A stretch of 64,000 nucleotides of DNA, from contig JBILHA010000001.1 of assembly GCA_044350705.1 (NCBI GenBank), positions 177,809-241,808 of the forward strand, written 5' to 3'. Numbering within the stretch: position 1 is the stretch's first letter; each line of letters starts with the position of its first letter. The notes under the pieces were generated by a model. That model was not told where the DNA came from. It worked only from the letters and a program-made list of their open reading frames with translations, and did not search any database. Origin of the DNA: Candidatus Kapaibacterium sp. Lineage in GTDB: Bacteria > Patescibacteriota > Patescibacteriia > UBA9934. Shown here in pieces: positions 2,326 through 8,868 of this stretch. The position numbers were made by a program, and so were the translations under genes.

Positions 2326-2550
2326 AACGGCGGATGCTCTCACGATTTTTTTCCACTGTCAAGAAATTTTTTTGGGAAAATAAAATAAAATATTGCTTCA
2401 TTTAGCAAAATTTTATCTTCAGGAGAAATGTTTTTATTGCGTTGCTGCAGTCTTTTGGGGTGGAGGGAGTATGGTTTCGAGTATAGGCGGCTGCGCTCGC
2501 TTGCTTGCCTATAGAATCCAGCGAATTCTCATCCGCTCGCCCCTACAATG

Positions 2551-2580
2551 AAAAAAATACGGAAGAATCCGTAATTTTTT
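2551..2580. terminator. Putative bidirectional terminator hairpin
   Basis: aaaaaaa-tacgga-agaa-tccgta-attttttcg: a 6-bp stem flanked by A- and T-runs, downstream of the minus-strand gene ending at 2740. Confidence 0.4.
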
Positions 2581-2739
2581 CGTGGCAGGACACATGACTG
2601 CTGAACTCAATTTTCAGAGGCGTTTAAAGGATTTTGCGAACGTTACGCTGGCAGGCAGGTACGGTGATTAGTGTGGCTTTTAAAAAAAAAACAGATGAGT
2701 ATAATTAGTTGAAATTTGTTCAATTAAACGTATCATTTT

Positions 2740-3732
2740 TTAATTATTAAAATCAGCAATCCAAATATCGTGTGTATTTTTTAAAGCAATAATATTTTTA
2801 ATATTTAGTTTAGTCGCGTGTTCATTTATCTGTTCTTGATTTGCACCGGATAATTCTTTATGAATTGCATTCGCGACTGTTAGCGCTAAGAGGCGATGAT
2901 TTCCATCCATCACGCTATGCCCCCTGAAGATGCCAAATTCATATTCTTTTTTAAGAATGATGGGCTTTGGAAAAGTTCCATTTTCTAGGAGGTATCGAAG
3001 AGCGTTTTCAAAACGCCGATATCCATTTCCTGTTTTTTTCAAATTACTATAAGCATTGTCAATGTTATATAAATAACATTTTTGCATGTCTTCAAGGCAT
3101 TTTATTGCTGCAGTACTCCACCTAATACTAAATGGTTTAATATTAACCTTATTCCAAGTGGCACGCTGCCAGGTATGCAGATCTAATGTTAAAATACGTA
3201 ACCATCTTTCCGGATTTTTACTTTCATAAGGAGGCCATCCCTCATATTCAGCAAATGATAGTAGCCATTCATCGATGATTTCTTCTGGAAAATTTGGCAA
3301 ATCACGCTTAATGCTTTCTCGTAAAGAATTCGAAACATCTCCAGTCACTTCAATGGCAATAGCGAGTACTCCAAATTTCTGAATATCCTCTGATGAATAG
3401 TAGCGGGCCATGTCAGCCGCTGCCTGTTTCACGGTTGTGCCCGGACTCCACCCAGCAAGAGTGGGATCTGTTATCGTGAATAGTTCAATAAAATCTTTTG
3501 CAGTTTTGGTTTCCTTAACTAATGCTACCAATGTCTTGTTATTCTTACCGTCCGTGAAGCGAATATTGTCACCGGCATTAATACACTTACGCTTACTGTC
3601 ATTGAGACGAATTTCAAATATTTTCTCTTTGCGAGATATCATCCCGAACGATTCCGGATTAAGTTTCATTTTATGTTGCATAATTTTTGAAAAACCACCA
3701 GACATTGCTGGTGATTTTTCAGCTGCCGTCAT
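2740..3732 (-). CDS. ASCH (PUA-like) domain protein with C-terminal ParB/DGQHR-like domain (hypothetical)
   Basis: N-terminal ASCH-like pattern (KIFEIRLNDSKRKCINAGDNIRF...LVALVKE...FGVLAIAIEV). C-terminal ParBc/DGQHR-like motif IILKKEYEFGIFRGHSVMDGNHRLLAL. Gene is markedly AT-rich (~38% GC) versus ~49% background. It lies immediately downstream of tRNA-Trp on the same strand. Confidence 0.6.
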   Translation of the reverse strand: MTAAEKSPAMSGGFSKIMQHKMKLNPESFGMISRKEKIFEIRLNDSKRKCINAGDNIRFTDGKNNKTLVALVKETKTAKDFIELFTITDPTLAGWSPGTTVKQAAADMARYYSSEDIQKFGVLAIAIEVTGDVSNSLRESIKRDLPNFPEEIIDEWLLSFAEYEGWPPYESKNPERWLRILTLDLHTWQRATWNKVNIKPFSIRWSTAAIKCLEDMQKCYLYNIDNAYSNLKKTGNGYRRFENALRYLLENGTFPKPIILKKEYEFGIFRGHSVMDGNHRLLALTVANAIHKELSGANQEQINEHATKLNIKNIIALKNTHDIWIADFNN

Positions 3733-3823
3733 AATGCTCCTGAGAACCTGGAGAGACGCAGGTATCCGTGAGGATAATTAGCGTTGCCCTAGGCATTCAG
3801 GTATTTCGCACCATAACAGCGCT

Positions 3824-3897
3824 TGGCAGGGGCGGAGGGAATCGAACCCGCGCTAGAGGTTTTGGAGACCCCTGTACTACCATTATACGACGCCCCT
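3824..3897 (-). tRNA. trnW: tRNA-Trp (anticodon CCA)
   Basis: Reverse complement reads AGGGGCGTCGTATAATGGTAGTACAGGGGTCTCCAAAACCTCTAGCGCGGGTTCGATTCCCTCCGCCCCTGCCA. Acceptor stem AGGGGCG/CGCCCCT, anticodon stem GGGGT/ACCTC with loop CTCCAAA (U33, anticodon CCA, A37), GTTCGATTC T-loop, encoded CCA end. Confidence 0.85.
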
Positions 3898-4125
3898 ATG
3901 GAGTAACGTGCTATAGTTTTTCCAGTGATTTTGCTGGGAGAGTATACAGAATCTTTTCCTGTCCGGCAAGTAAAATATCCTATGACCCCAACGAGAGGAA
4001 TTATGGAAGAGGAAAAGAAAGATCTTGAATGTAGCGGGTATGGCGTAGCTTACGATTACATCTGAGCAGTTCTTTGCAAGGGTGAATATTCGTTGGGAGT
4101 TTCCCAAGGGGTTTCGTTGGAGAAT

Positions 4126-4155
4126 AAAAACACGTCTCATATGAGACGTGTTTTT
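4126..4155. terminator. Bidirectional terminator (perfect palindrome)
   Basis: aaaaacacgtctcat|atgagacgtgttttt is a perfect 30-nt palindrome with A5/T5 flanks. It sits directly after the stop of the minus-strand gene ending at 4159. Confidence 0.6.
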
Positions 4156-4158
4156 AGA

Positions 4159-5880
4159 CTATTCCGTAGCAAGTGCTCCTTCTCCCGCGGGGTTGTATCC
4201 TGCTTCTACCTCAGCTTTATCATCGAATCCATCATAGTCACTGTCGGTTGAGAGGTCGCTTGAGCGGTAGAGGACCGCTTCATCGTATGCCGAGAGTCCG
4301 TCTTCATCTTCGTCGGTTTTCTTTGCTCCTTCCTCGGAGAGAAAGAGTTCAGTTGCGGTGTTTGTGCCTTTTACCACTTTTCCATAGAAGGAAAATGTAT
4401 CATCTTCCTCCCCCTTTTTTACTTCAAAGAGTAAAGTGTATCCGTTTTCGGTACGGCTATATGGATAGGGTTTTTCTGTAAAAATGTCGTTTGGAATGGT
4501 GTTTACTTTTTTATATTCATCTTCGAGGCCGATCAGATCGTTGAGAGACTCGGGATACTCCCCACGCTCCCCATGGTAGAGATCAAGTGCGGATTGAATA
4601 TCGCTTACGGTTTCGAGTTGCGTATCTTGGTTTGCAGTTTCCATATCCATTCCCACGAGAAGATTGATTGCTTCTTCGGTGGTCATGGCATCTGTAGGAG
4701 CGCTTACATTTACGGGGATATTAATACTTTCAAAGTGTATTTCGGTTTCTAAAGTAATTTGTCGATCTTTCAGGAGATCTCCTTGGAGCTTTGGGGCCAG
4801 ACGTGTTGAGAGGGCGATCATGAGAGGGGTGCCGTCATCGCGCATGGTTGCTGAGAGGTTGAGTCTCTTGAAAAGCTCGCGGTAGATATCTCTTGCACGT
4901 TCCTTTGTAGACGCTTCAATAAATTCATCGGTAAATACCATGTATTCTTCGGTTTCCGGGAAGAGTCCTTCTCGGTCATCACCAATTGCAATGACTGTTT
5001 CGCGGAGTTTTTCTCCATCGATCACTGCGGTTGTATGCCATGCGCGTTCATCCTGATAGGTTACTCGTTCTGGAACTGAGAAAATGATCGCGCCATTTTT
5101 TACTCCTTGTTCAAGAAGGGTAAAGATCTCTTCTCGTGGATCAGGGCTTTTTTCTTTCTCGTCTTCCTTTTCCTCCTCTGATTCTTCAATATCCATAAAG
5201 AAGGGGTCGGTGTACGTGAATACTTCCTCACGTTCTTCCGATTCATTTTCAAGATCAATCCATTTTCCCTCTAAGGCGCTTAAGTCCAAGATGGGAATGG
5301 GGAGAGGAATGGCATCGGGCTTGATATAGGTCGTTCCTTCCACGGTACGTGTTGTGAGATCGATGTTTGCGCTTATATTGTTTCCGGTATACGTGCCTTG
5401 TATGCGTGTTTCTTCATTTGCTCCTTCTTGTTGTTCTGCGAAAGAAGAAGTAATGGAGAGATCGAGATGAAGATCGCTTGGGAGCATTTGGAGTGTGAGC
5501 GGATTGAGTGATTCGTCATCCATTTCTTTATCTAAGAAAAGAGAGAAATCAAGAGGCTCCACATCTTCTGCGCGAGGCTCTATGGCTACATTGAGGTTTA
5601 CGGTTGTTTTTGCTGAATTGATGCTTTGTAATGTGGCAAGCATCTGTTCTGCGGTCGGGCGTTTCATGAGCGGGTTCGGAAGATAGCCTGCCCAAGCGGC
5701 ATAGCCTAATCCGGTAATAGCGCCGATACCTACGATCGTTGCTCCTGCAATAAAGATGATGCGCTTTTTGCCATGTGAGGGTTTTGATGGAGGAGGAGAG
5801 GTGGGTTGAGGAATGGGAGTGGACGGTGCGTTTTGCCCCGCGGACATCTCGGGGAGCAAGGGGGAGGGGAGTTCTGGCAT
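4159..5880 (-). CDS. Hypothetical membrane-anchored acidic protein
   Basis: Pro-rich N-terminus, then one TM helix (IIFIAGATIVGIGAITGLGYAAWAGYL). Long Glu/Asp-rich extracytoplasmic region. C-terminal DSDYDGFDD acidic motif. No catalytic motif recognised. Confidence 0.55.
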   Translation of the reverse strand: MPELPSPLLPEMSAGQNAPSTPIPQPTSPPPSKPSHGKKRIIFIAGATIVGIGAITGLGYAAWAGYLPNPLMKRPTAEQMLATLQSINSAKTTVNLNVAIEPRAEDVEPLDFSLFLDKEMDDESLNPLTLQMLPSDLHLDLSITSSFAEQQEGANEETRIQGTYTGNNISANIDLTTRTVEGTTYIKPDAIPLPIPILDLSALEGKWIDLENESEEREEVFTYTDPFFMDIEESEEEKEDEKEKSPDPREEIFTLLEQGVKNGAIIFSVPERVTYQDERAWHTTAVIDGEKLRETVIAIGDDREGLFPETEEYMVFTDEFIEASTKERARDIYRELFKRLNLSATMRDDGTPLMIALSTRLAPKLQGDLLKDRQITLETEIHFESINIPVNVSAPTDAMTTEEAINLLVGMDMETANQDTQLETVSDIQSALDLYHGERGEYPESLNDLIGLEDEYKKVNTIPNDIFTEKPYPYSRTENGYTLLFEVKKGEEDDTFSFYGKVVKGTNTATELFLSEEGAKKTDEDEDGLSAYDEAVLYRSSDLSTDSDYDGFDDKAEVEAGYNPAGEGALATE

Positions 5881-6765: not shown

Positions 6766-8007
6766 ATGGATTCTTCTGAAGATGTGTTGTTTCGTCGTGC
6801 ATTTGGTGCGGGTATTCTCGGTGCTTTTTTTGGTATAATCCTCGTCAGCGGAGGAGTATGGCTTTTGTATCAAGATCCTCGTGGAAAGTCATGGATTCAT
6901 GATCGTATTTCCTCTCTTTTGCTTACGGAGGAAGTTCCCACGATTACTGATACTACGGGAACGATTGATCCTCTTGTTTCCGTGGTTGCCGCTGCTGATC
7001 CTGCGGTTGTTTCGCTGGTGGTGACAAAGGAGGTTCCTATCTATGAGCGGTATTATGAGCGAGCCAATCCTTTCGGAGGGGGATTTTCTGGGTTCCTCAT
7101 TCCGCAGTATCGAGAGAATGGTACTCGTGAAGAGGAGGTATCGGGCGGAACGGGATTCTTCATTTCTTCGGATGGATATCTTGTAACAAATAATCACGTG
7201 ATAGATGTAGAAGAATCGTCGTATACCGTTTATCTTAATGATGGGGCTTCCTATCCTGCGAGCCTTATTGCAACAGATGCTTTGCTTGATGTAGCTCTGT
7301 TAAAAGTTGACGCGCCGGGTGTTTCATTTTCTTCGCTTTCTTTTGCTGATTCTGATAAGGCTCAAGCAGGTCAAACGGTTATCGCGATCGGAAATGCGCT
7401 CGGGGAATATCGTAATACGGTTTCTGTAGGAGTTATTTCGGGTTTGTCTCGCTCGGTGTTTGCGGCAACGACGGGAGGATCCGCGGAGCTATTGCAGGAT
7501 ATTATTCAGACCGATGCGGCGATCAACCCCGGGAATTCTGGAGGTCCGCTTCTTGATCTTTCGGGAAAGGTGATCGGGGTGAATGTTGCTGCGTCGGTAG
7601 GGAGCGCTGAGAATATTGGATTTGCTCTTCCTGCGAATGCGGTACGTGTCGCGGTAGAATCCATGAAAGAGCATGGGAAGATTCTTCGTCCATGGCTCGG
7701 GGTGCGTTATGACATGATTACTCCTGAGTTCGCGGAGAGCGCAGGATTGCCGGTGACTTTTGGAGCGCTTATTCGGAGAGGAGGGGATAATGAGCCCGCG
7801 GTTATTCCGGGTTCGCCTGCTGATAAAGCAGGGTTGGTGGAAAACGATATTATTTTGAGTGTAAATGGTGAGTTTGTGAATGATTCTCATGATTTAGGGT
7901 ATCTTCTTCGTCTTCATGCTCCTGGTGATGCTGTGGTTATTCGTGTTATGCGTGAGGGGGAAGAGCGCGAGTATCAGGTAACTCTTGAAGAGCGTCCTGC
8001 TGAATAG
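6766..8007 (+). CDS. htrA: HtrA/DegP-family serine protease with C-terminal PDZ domain
   Basis: Trypsin-like catalytic motifs GTGFFISSDGYLVTNNHV (His), D in LLDVALLKVD, GNSGGPL (Ser). C-terminal PDZ-like segment. N-terminal TM. ORF track starts at a TTG at 6748; first ATG is 6766. Confidence 0.85.
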   Translation: MDSSEDVLFRRAFGAGILGAFFGIILVSGGVWLLYQDPRGKSWIHDRISSLLLTEEVPTITDTTGTIDPLVSVVAAADPAVVSLVVTKEVPIYERYYERANPFGGGFSGFLIPQYRENGTREEEVSGGTGFFISSDGYLVTNNHVIDVEESSYTVYLNDGASYPASLIATDALLDVALLKVDAPGVSFSSLSFADSDKAQAGQTVIAIGNALGEYRNTVSVGVISGLSRSVFAATTGGSAELLQDIIQTDAAINPGNSGGPLLDLSGKVIGVNVAASVGSAENIGFALPANAVRVAVESMKEHGKILRPWLGVRYDMITPEFAESAGLPVTFGALIRRGGDNEPAVIPGSPADKAGLVENDIILSVNGEFVNDSHDLGYLLRLHAPGDAVVIRVMREGEEREYQVTLEERPAE

Positions 8008-8010
8008 CGT

Positions 8011-8868
8011 ATGAAATTTTCTCGTACAGGAATTTTGCCCGTAGGAGGCATCGTCTTGATGCTCTTTGTTCTCATTGTTCTTGTTTTATTCGTCCTTCCT
8101 CGGGATACCGCATATGCGCCTGTTGTTCCTGTTGAGTCGGGAGAGGAAGGGGGGCAGGGCGAGCAAGTATGGAAAAATATTATGGTCTCAGAGCCGGTTC
8201 CAGGACAAGAAGTCGGGTTTCCTTTAAAGATTGTTGGACAGGCGCGTGTATTTGAAAATACGTTTCAGTATCGTGTGGTAGATGACGCGGGAAATGTGCT
8301 TACAGATGGATATGGCATGGCAGAGGCGAAGGAAGCGGGAGAGTTCGGAACATTTCGTATTTTGCTTACCTACCGTGAGCCGACAACGCCTACGGGGAAG
8401 GTGGAAGTATTTTCTTCCTCCGCAAGGGATGGTTCTCAGGAGAACAGCGTTGTTATTCCCGTTGTTTTTTCACAAGATGTTTCTGCTCAAGAGATTTTGA
8501 TCCCCTTTGTGCCTCGTGAGAACGAGGGTACTGATTGTGCTGAGATTGCCTTCGTGCCTCGACGCGTTGAACGTACACCTGCGATTGCGCATGCAGCAAT
8601 GATTGAGCTTCTTGAAGGGCCCGATGAAGGTGAGCGTCAATTATTTCTTACGCTTCTTCCTGCCGAGGCCCGTCTTCGTTCTGTTGTTATCGAGGAGGGG
8701 GTTGCGAGGGTTACCTTTGTTGCGGGATCTTTTGATCGTGTTGCGGGATCGTGTATGGTCACGGGTATTCGTGCCCAAATTGAGGCAACCTTAGCACAAT
8801 TTCCCTCCGTTGATTTGGTGATTATTTTAGAAGAAGGGAAAGAAGCGGGGGAGATTTTGCAGCCATAA
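8011..8868 (+). CDS. Secreted GerMN/Gmad2-like domain protein (hypothetical)
   Basis: N-terminal TM/signal. Ig-like Gmad2-type segment (PLKIVGQARVFENTFQYRVVDDAGNVLTDGYGMA) followed by GerMN-like segment (AAMIELLEGP...VTFVAGSFDRVAGSCMV). Pattern-level call only. Confidence 0.5.
   Translation: MKFSRTGILPVGGIVLMLFVLIVLVLFVLPRDTAYAPVVPVESGEEGGQGEQVWKNIMVSEPVPGQEVGFPLKIVGQARVFENTFQYRVVDDAGNVLTDGYGMAEAKEAGEFGTFRILLTYREPTTPTGKVEVFSSSARDGSQENSVVIPVVFSQDVSAQEILIPFVPRENEGTDCAEIAFVPRRVERTPAIAHAAMIELLEGPDEGERQLFLTLLPAEARLRSVVIEEGVARVTFVAGSFDRVAGSCMVTGIRAQIEATLAQFPSVDLVIILEEGKEAGEILQP

Follow-up and report, generated by a model that had tools for sequence, protein, structure and literature searches.

A probable ParB/Srx-like module fused to an ASCH domain in a horizontally acquired gene of a patescibacterium

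Introduction

Proteins that join a PUA-like barrel to a ParB-type fold have been described before. A 2025 survey of PF02195 proteins by Kaljevic et al. found frequent fusions to DUF3850, in phages and prophages, and to ASCH, in archaea; the surveyed ParB-fold members variously bind cytidine, adenosine or guanosine triphosphate (CTP, ATP or GTP), one DUF3850 fusion binds CTP, a neighbouring parA is reported for the DUF3850 fusions, and an anti-defence role has been proposed for those of prophages (PMC12704722). Iyer et al. reported ASCH fused to Dam/ParB-helix-turn-helix (HTH) proteins (PMC4738411), and with these two reports the combination of PUA-like domain and ParB fold counts as already known. 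Here we describe a gene in a 64,000-nucleotide (nt) stretch of DNA from Candidatus Kapaibacterium sp. (contig JBILHA010000001.1, positions 177,809 to 241,808; the whole stretch is called the window below), whose 330-amino-acid (aa) product consists of an ASCH domain and a C-terminal module of probable ParB/Srx-like fold, here called module 2. An initial annotation, made from the sequence alone, had found this architecture unfamiliar, a view that the surveyed ParB-fold fusions to DUF3850 and ASCH no longer allow. What is new is that the ParB-like partner is a very divergent family beyond PF02195-based surveys, with an extension and a motif of its own, a defence or mobile habitat and a bias towards the candidate phyla radiation (CPR), and that this family, which we refer to as WPP-DGNHR, has been fused to ASCH in a one-off event.

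In characterised ASCH relatives the pocket holds a flipped-out or free modified base and hydrolyses N4-acetylcytosine (ac4C); its pocket and catalytic residues are K21, E24 (Thr or Ser in the YqfB clade) and R26, and octapeptides of the 'GKER' type are common, including those of EOLA1, TRIP4 and archaeal proteins (bioRxiv 10.64898/2026.08.01.741249; 10.64898/2026.02.27.708502). The same studies found that ac4C was removed from transfer RNA (tRNA) by all 19 of the ASCH proteins assayed, GKER-type and Pyrococcus proteins included, that EOLA1 deacetylates free ac4C, and that prokaryotic GKER-type proteins are linked to restriction-modification (R-M) and base-modification contexts.

Results

A family apparently outside the curated libraries

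The open reading frame (ORF) is complete and, as the initial annotation had it, occupies 2740..3732 on the minus strand, encodes 330 aa and contains both of the peptide strings quoted there (ORF list and translation). An identical protein is present on at least three contigs from different samples (JGI, NCBI and Logan), the longest of 509 kilobases (kb), and because these assemblies are independent, neither mis-assembly nor a frameshift accounts for the ASCH fusion. The parts of the ORF are as follows.

2740..3732, minus strand: ORF, ASCH domain plus probable ParB/Srx-like module (ORF list; same protein on JGI, NCBI and Logan contigs)
2743..3330, minus strand: C-terminal module (module 2), residues 135-330, probable ParB/Srx-like fold (phmmer family, alignments, AlphaFold2 model)
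3163..3330, minus strand: tryptophan-rich (Trp-rich) helical N-terminal sub-domain of module 2, residues 135-190, with DLPNFP, W156, W166-P-P, W177 and W188 (conserved columns, model helices)
3013..3015, minus strand: R240 (R106 of the module), near-invariant Arg of the helix that precedes the 'G-FP-P-IIL' strand (at least 90% conserved)
2893..2907, minus strand: DGNHR motif, D276-R280, family signature and presumed phosphate-binding site (conservation, model, alignments)
3340..3678, minus strand: ASCH (PUA-like) domain, residues ~19-131 (Pfam, PHROG, PDB and P0002 matches)
3607..3630, minus strand: ASCH octapeptide K35-E-K37-I-F-E40-I-R42, 'GKER' type with the first Gly changed to Lys (translation)

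Residues 135-330 were searched against Pfam, NCBIfam, PADLOC and PHROGs without a match at an expect value (E) of up to 10. An exhaustive phmmer search with the C-terminal half against 1.84 billion representatives returned 260 cluster representatives at E ≤ 1e-3, with 116 at E ≤ 1e-10, and almost all of these homologues are free-standing proteins of 170-220 aa. Judged by sequence, module 2 is a member of a family of its own that is covered by no curated annotation.

We aligned 60 and, more broadly, 143 members, and both alignments show the same conserved order: a 'DLPNFP' start, five near-invariant Trp, W-P-P, a near-invariant Arg, a 'G-FP-P-IIL' strand and DG-HR. In the 60-sequence alignment the DGNHR motif has an invariant D and G and at least 90% conservation of its H and R, which puts the motif beyond chance. 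Indeed, DGxxR is found in 136 of 142 stand-alone homologues, mostly as DGNHR, with variants that include DGHHR, DGSHR, DGCHR, DGKQR and DGRQR. The near-invariant R240 would be a second candidate phosphate contact. For the Trp-rich sub-domain (residues 135-190), no known domain was matched.

With the 60-sequence alignment, AlphaFold2 modelled module 2 at a predicted local distance difference test score (pLDDT) of 97.4 and a predicted template modelling score of 0.91. The model has four N-terminal helices, which make up the Trp-rich sub-domain (H2-10, H16-30, H40-47 and H51-55), and then a beta-(alpha)-alpha-beta-beta-alpha-alpha-beta core in which DGNHR sits where the third core strand (E134-142) passes into the next helix (H144-159).

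The fusion of ASCH to module 2 is a singleton, found in the window only among the 28 loci that we compared and 150 listed homologues; a word-indexed search with the full-length protein against 5.8 billion clusters matched only the protein itself and one ASCH-only relative. N-terminal fusions of other family members are rare, namely an XRE-type HTH_3 domain in one protein (P0078) and a domain without identity in another (P0062). In the window protein the fusion junction, a linker at about residues 130-137, coincides with the start of the free-standing homologues, '..IKxDLPNFP'.

Sub-threshold signals point to a ParB/Srx fold

ParB, sulfiredoxin and SerK carry a phosphate-binding motif, GxxR or GGCHR, where the third strand of the ParB/Srx fold meets the helix after it. 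We consider it likely that module 2 has this fold, as a very divergent branch of the superfamily, and this call is founded on the agreement of many sub-threshold signals, not on one significant match. When each of 60 members was scanned against Pfam, the only recurrent families, besides CUE with three hits, were GmrSD_N (10/60), DUF1015 (8/60) and ParB_N (4/60), all sub-threshold; all others appeared once each. A profile search of PDB gave SerK and SbnI at E = 0.03-0.2, aligned over '...RF..l..G.fPkPill..y.ivDGnHR..A', and PDB matches of the broader 143-sequence profile were no better. DGNHR is aligned to the DGHHR of SerK, the DGVHR of SbnI and the GGHxR of ParB_N. Using hhalign against 47 Pfam-verified ParB_N domains, we obtained the expected register (P = 0.034-0.038), with 'fP-PIil...I-DGnHR-A' opposite 'v-DPIiV...IigGHqR'; the register was right against a single ParB_N sequence too, and P was 0.03-0.1 over both ParB_N targets.

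Comparison of structures points the same way. Foldseek against PDB placed ParB, Noc, Spo0J, KorB, SbnI, SerK or Srx at 30 of its 50 top matches, with local core matches of ~50 residues at 2.2-3.6 Å, and in BFVD about 22 of the 50 top matches carry the names ParB, Srx, GmrSD or Dnd, with probabilities that reach 0.89. In PADLOC, several members weakly match the N-terminal ~130 positions of the PD-Lambda-5_A models (best 2.4e-4). We had also guessed that PD-Lambda-5_A might be a ParB_N-methyltransferase like a protein at one of the family loci (L015), and this guess was not confirmed, the L015 protein scoring as an ordinary type II methyltransferase.

The initial annotation had proposed a ParB/Srx-like C-terminus. 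It was probably right, as the motif is conserved and the weak signals concur, with no single match that is significant, and profile searches assigned the C-terminus to no unrelated fold. The closer likeness that it drew to the DGQHR of DndB and the DUF262 of GmrSD did not hold up: the window protein matched no DndB/DGQHR, DUF262 or DUF1524 model and no PADLOC-DB v2 defence model at E ≤ 10 (Pfam, NCBIfam and PADLOC), and belongs to a separate family. PF02195 is likewise absent from the window protein at E ≤ 10, and neither the 60- nor the 143-member alignment has a conserved Box III-like segment after the DGNHR helix.

The N-terminal half is assigned to ASCH

Residues 19-131 are a solid ASCH assignment at the level of sequence, as the initial annotation had predicted. 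The Pfam ASCH profile (PF04266) aligns over positions 1-101 of 103 (E = 0.006, 17.7 bits against a cut-off of 21.2), DUF3850 matches the N-terminal half at E = 4e-4, slightly below the gathering cut-off, and phrog_19935 matches it at E = 1.2e-18. Residues 19-128 match the solved structures 1s04 (PF0455; E = 5.8e-6) and 2z0t (PH0355; E = 1.5e-4), and the closest relative, the Pfam-tagged ASCH protein P0002, has 38% identity to the window domain (E = 2e-18). The K37/E40/R42 triad is kept and corresponds to K21/E24/R26 of the described proteins, in the K, E and R positions of the octapeptide GxKxxExR. Because ASCH relatives deacetylate ac4C and the triad is retained, this half may be an enzyme and not a reader alone.

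Two side observations concern this domain. In P0002 (L037 519-1421) the ASCH domain is C-terminal and follows an unrelated N-terminal region of ~185 aa without a Pfam match, a layout suggesting that this ASCH subtype is fused to varied partners; a gene for a Flg_new/MBG_2 surface protein of 1991 aa lies close by. Residues 15-63 of the ORF (~3544-3690) weakly match (E = 0.0016) positions 93-138 of the 253 positions of phrog_986 ('RNA-binding protein'), which has its ASCH-like part after ~90 positions and could be the phage ParB-DUF3850 fusion type of Kaljevic et al.

Free-standing family members occur in defence and mobile contexts

Loci were searched with a 13-sequence alignment, and 28 loci are compared here. 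Carriers among genome representatives are mostly Patescibacteria/CPR (unclassified Patescibacteria, Peribacteria and Saccharibacteria), together with one Halomonas and one Rhodospirillaceae. The family ORF is free-standing, at 177-220 aa, in all 28 loci except the window, and no partner gene recurred between independent loci. Defence, toxin-antitoxin or mobile-element markers were found in 12 of the 18 independent loci with usable flanks, as a raw count without a background rate, and housekeeping surroundings in two of the 18, the window included. The GC content of the family gene was below that of its locus in 11 of 14 cases. The homologues are thus patchy accessory genes in defence or mobile contexts and not the universally conserved housekeeping genes that the initial annotation had considered as a possible outcome.

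The neighbours are diverse. In a Saccharibacteria metagenome-assembled genome (L014 4913-8582), a SIR2 gene (6e-61) and a HerA gene (9e-173) precede the family gene, which starts at 7983, before the HerA gene stops at 7992, so that the two overlap; a Prim-Pol gene lies nearby, and the family gene may be the third component of a SIR2 + HerA system variant. At another locus (L025 1072-2104) a C5 methyltransferase, Vsr and a BglII-type restriction endonuclease cluster around the family gene, whose stop (1665) overlaps the start (1658) of the Vsr/MTES_1575 endonuclease gene. Further loci have PifA (2.5e-86), AbiLi (1.9e-76) with AbiLii (2.9e-9), a Bsp6I R-M pair, a MazF toxin or an insertion sequence transposase beside the family gene. 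One has the full ABC-3C trio (CTD7, MC3 and DUF3732) on one side of the family gene and a resolvase and DUF499 on the opposite side; a SEFIR/TIR protein adjoins one family gene; and members are also found in an integrase + DUF3987-primase island, beside a ParB_N-methylase and, at one locus, next to a divergently transcribed HTH_3 gene.

At one locus (L005) the family gene is bracketed by a repeat of ~125 nt that occurs in more than 20 copies in 13 kb (for example 7871-7992 and 8534-8658), starts with GCCTAAC, ends with GTTAGGC and folds into a long imperfect hairpin (z = -3.1). RYYYAAC and GTTRRRY are the core sites of integron attC. The repeat ends match these cores, and the family member there (P0152) is therefore read as a single integron cassette, in an array of small same-strand ORFs between repeats that is also seen at L006; other cassettes of these two loci encode DUF4062, DUF2059 and an HI1420-type antitoxin. 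Integron cassettes without an assigned function have been found to encode phage defence (bioRxiv 10.1101/2024.07.02.601719; PMC12614218).

Two further observations were made at these loci. What had looked like one protein in two contexts (L026 and L027) proved by blastn to be overlapping pieces of one locus. Beside the Bsp6I-type restriction enzyme of L003/L011 (6319-7896, minus strand) is a gene for a 525-aa protein with a LexA DNA-binding domain, Peptidase_S24 and a C5 DNA methylase, an unusual joining of a self-cleaving repressor to a methyltransferase that points to an R-M system under the control of DNA damage.

The gene is a single insert in its own locus

In the window the gene lies between tRNA-Trp and the gene of a secreted LysM-like protein, and the surrounding genes encode aldehyde dehydrogenase, Band_7, HtrA, HU and ATP synthase. 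Its signals and flanking features are these.

3737..3741, minus strand: Shine-Dalgarno sequence AGGAG, 4 nt 5' of the ATG (sequence read)
2558..2573, minus strand: terminator-like hairpin, then a T-run, ~170 nt 3' of the stop codon (terminator scan)
3824..3897, minus strand: tRNA-Trp(CCA), same strand, directly upstream of the ORF (ARAGORN)
3969-3941, minus strand: promoter-like site preceding tRNA-Trp (promoter scan)
2500..3750, no strand: low-GC segment coinciding with the gene, 35-41% against 46-48% on both sides (composition profile)
2696..2708 and 3769-3781, no strand: 13-nt direct repeat, TGAGTATAATTAG and TGAGGATAATTAG, 12/13 identical, bracketing the ORF (repeat search)

The gene has a GC content of 37.2%, against 47.6% for the window, and is a single-gene insert; from this low-GC signature we conclude that it was acquired horizontally. 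Within the low-GC segment, one copy of the 13-nt repeat follows the stop codon at a distance of 31 nt and the other precedes the ATG by 37 nt. About 2.5 such repeat pairs are expected in the 2.9 kb scanned and far fewer at these particular positions, and the repeat could be an insertion scar or chance. The tRNA-adjacent islet of the initial annotation is thus borne out in the tRNA-Trp directly upstream and in the low GC, and reduced to one gene, with neither an integrase gene nor a repeat of the tRNA 3' end found around it. No parA-type ATPase is among the called genes within 10 kb, and no dnd genes are in the neighbourhood.

At the ends of the flanking genes are perfect palindromes without a spacer, 1333-1374 (21+21 nt) and 4125-4156 (16+16 nt), which are probably bidirectional terminators. 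Upstream of the tRNA, 4159-5880 on the minus strand encodes a 573-aa protein whose N-terminus is rich in Pro and which has a predicted membrane anchor and low-complexity stretches of very acidic composition; no Pfam match was recorded for it.

Discussion

A possible sensor and effector in one polypeptide

We read this gene as a horizontally acquired accessory gene whose ASCH pocket and ParB/Srx-like module, the latter handling a nucleoside triphosphate (NTP), form a one-polypeptide sensor and effector used in conflict, and our confidence in this reading is evenly balanced. The ASCH barrel, of the GKER (TRIP4/EOLA1/PF0455-like) type, would hold a modified base in its K37/E40/R42 pocket. Module 2, with its Trp-rich helical extension and beta-alpha-beta-beta-alpha-beta core, would bind NTP via DGNHR and R240, and would probably hydrolyse the bound NTP or transfer its phosphate. 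ASCH would couple this activity, in this lineage only, to a modified base, be it in RNA, in DNA or in a free nucleotide, and sensor and effector together might be used against phages or mobile elements. Elsewhere module 2 is usually a self-sufficient single-gene unit that moves among genomes and is found in defence islands, integron cassettes and integrative elements. A role of the gene in defence or conflict is plausible from these contexts; NTP binding, the identity of the ASCH ligand and any defence phenotype are what we infer from the features described. We put forward more tentatively, and with a good deal of doubt, the larger proposal that WPP-DGNHR proteins are a new family of self-sufficient conflict effectors, each encoded by one gene and based on a ParB/Srx-like NTP-binding fold, found mainly in CPR and mobilised as integron cassettes or island cargo, and that the window fusion is an ASCH-gated sensor-effector for an N4-acylated or otherwise modified base. 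It would then offer a first experimental way into what the family senses and does.

Several observations weigh against the sensor-effector reading. No individual sequence or structure comparison ties module 2 significantly to ParB/Srx: the best Pfam match is E = 0.005, below gathering, and the best to ParB_N E = 0.051; Foldseek against PDB has no significant match (best E = 0.35, template modelling score ≤ 0.26); and the window protein matches no ParB-clan model in Pfam, NCBIfam or PADLOC at E ≤ 10. On the ASCH side, the octapeptide has Lys for its first Gly, and the single-sequence AlphaFold2 model of the full protein, at pLDDT 36, is unusable for the ASCH fold, so that structure prediction, to which the initial annotation had looked for both halves, served only the C-terminal one. 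As to the habitat, the count of defence-associated loci given above is raw, the gene itself has only housekeeping neighbours, defence genes are absent within 10 kb, and PADLOC lists none of the family members as a defence gene. Collections of 50,697 phage genomes, 72,556 plasmids and 2.9 million viral contigs likewise yielded no family member: tblastn with either half against the phages and with the C-terminal half against the plasmids gave no match and the viral-contig scan gave no relative.

A different explanation, which we think unlikely, would place the gene in RNA-modification turnover or nucleotide salvage, with ASCH deacetylating ac4C, as a free nucleoside or in tRNA, and module 2 acting as a SerK/SbnI-type kinase or an NTP-dependent regulator. 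Activity on ac4C in 19 of 19 assayed ASCH proteins for tRNA, and in EOLA1 for the free form, is consistent with this, given the intact triad, as are the ParB/Srx-fold kinases among the best PDB sequence matches of module 2 and the housekeeping neighbours of a gene that follows a tRNA gene. However, the fusion is a singleton with a foreign base composition and not a conserved metabolic gene, its free-standing homologues occupy integrative elements, defence islands and an integron cassette, not nucleotide-metabolism operons, and no TmcA/NAT10 acetyltransferase partner was seen in the region examined.

To the same low degree, we entertain the idea that the protein is cargo serving a mobile element, as an NTP-gated regulator or counter-defence factor that would bind nucleic acid and modulate neighbouring immune systems or host processes. 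The fusion of P0078 to HTH_3 and the divergent HTH_3 neighbour of another member argue for it, along with the members in the integrase/DUF3987-primase island, beside the ParB_N-methylase and in the integron cassette. It would also agree with the anti-defence role proposed for prophage ParB-fold-DUF3850 fusions (PMC12704722), and with the overlap of the family gene at two loci, with the HerA end at one and the Vsr start at the other, which would suit an accessory gene. Against this, most members have no DNA-binding domain, and absence from all the phage genomes, plasmids and viral contigs searched would be unexpected for a counter-defence gene of phages or plasmids.

It is improbable, in our view, that the protein is a type IV (modification-dependent) restriction enzyme in which ASCH reads a modified base in invading DNA and a ParB-like nuclease cuts, the kind of function toward which the initial annotation leaned. 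PUA-like reader-nuclease fusions are an established design (PMC6765204, PMC7641849), a fusion of a restriction endonuclease to ASCH is known from mobile defence neighbourhoods (PMC10853773), there are claims of nuclease activity in some members of the ParB superfamily, and the family occurs in defence contexts. However, no HNH, PD-(D/E)xK, DUF1524 or other nuclease domain was found in Pfam, NCBIfam or PADLOC; the conserved residues beyond DG-HR and one Arg are mostly Trp and Pro, with no evident acidic metal-binding cluster; and the closest sequence matches are the kinases SerK and SbnI, not nucleases. All other family members, moreover, have no reader domain and yet are kept as single genes, which argues that the activity of module 2 is independent of modification reading. 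The housekeeping neighbourhood, and the fact that ASCH domains of this type can be ac4C deacetylases, also speak against the restriction function.

That the ORF is a non-functional chimera (an accidental fusion, pseudogene or mis-assembly without selected function) is highly improbable: the singleton architecture, the very short linker and the lack of another full-length match in 5.8 billion clusters would fit, set against an intact frame with a Shine-Dalgarno sequence and terminator-like hairpin, identical sequence in independent samples, retention of every family-invariant residue and of the ASCH triad, and a junction exactly at the start of the free-standing homologues.

If the sensor-effector reading is true, the gene defines a protein family outside curated libraries with a very confident predicted fold, whose habitat suggests a candidate single-gene immune or counter-immune function, which would be of note for CPR bacteria, whose defence repertoire is poorly known. 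The diversification of the ParB/Srx NTP-binding fold would then extend to a branch too divergent for PF02195-based surveys. The ASCH fusion would act as a 'Rosetta stone', suggesting that the activity of the family is tied to modified bases or nucleotides, which gives a concrete biochemical hypothesis. If the reading is wrong, the gene is another orphan accessory gene.

Comparison with known systems

Like the ParB-CTPase-DUF3850/ASCH fusions, the window protein would have a PUA-like barrel and a ParB/Srx-type nucleotide-binding fold in a single polypeptide, and its N-terminus scores with DUF3850. Those fusions have a canonical PF02195 domain, whereas the window protein has none and matches no ParB-clan model; its module also has a Trp-rich extension, DGNHR in place of GERRxR, no equivalent of Box III and no parA neighbour. 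The order differs as well, since ASCH is N-terminal here and the ParB fold apparently comes first in the ParB-CTPase-DUF3850 fusions, an order taken from their name.

Among solved structures, the best sequence matches are SerK (free serine kinase; 1vk1, 5x0b) and SbnI (5ujd, 6nr6), which are small-molecule kinases of the ParB/Srx fold related to DUF1015. They share with module 2 a helix, a 'P-PILL' strand, a 'Y-IVDG-HHR' strand and a helix, and their local structural core matches at 2.6-3.1 Å. They differ in that the match is only E = 0.03-0.2 over ~45 residues, their C-terminal substrate-binding halves are absent from module 2, and they do not have its Trp-rich extension.

GmrSD/DUF262 (DGQQR), DndB (DGQHR) and the N-terminus of PD-Lambda-5_A share the DG-x-[HQ]-R signature and the defence-island habitat with the family. 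In contrast to these multidomain proteins of 450-600 aa, family members stand alone at ~190 aa and have no DUF1524/HNH partner domain.

The N-terminal half resembles the GKER-type ASCH proteins (PF0455/PH0355, the EOLA1/TRIP4-like clade and phrog_19935) in its full-length domain match and conserved K-x-x-E-x-R; unlike them, it has Lys for the first Gly, the conserved Ser/Thr in the N-terminal region of the TRIP4-like clade is not evident, and it is fused to a ParB-like module. In the putative joining of a PUA-like modified-base pocket to an effector, on mobile or defence DNA, the protein is like the type IV enzymes that combine PUA, EVE or SRA domains with nucleases (PMC6765204, PMC7641849). 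It differs from them in that its effector is no recognisable nuclease and its reader is an ASCH domain, perhaps catalytic itself.

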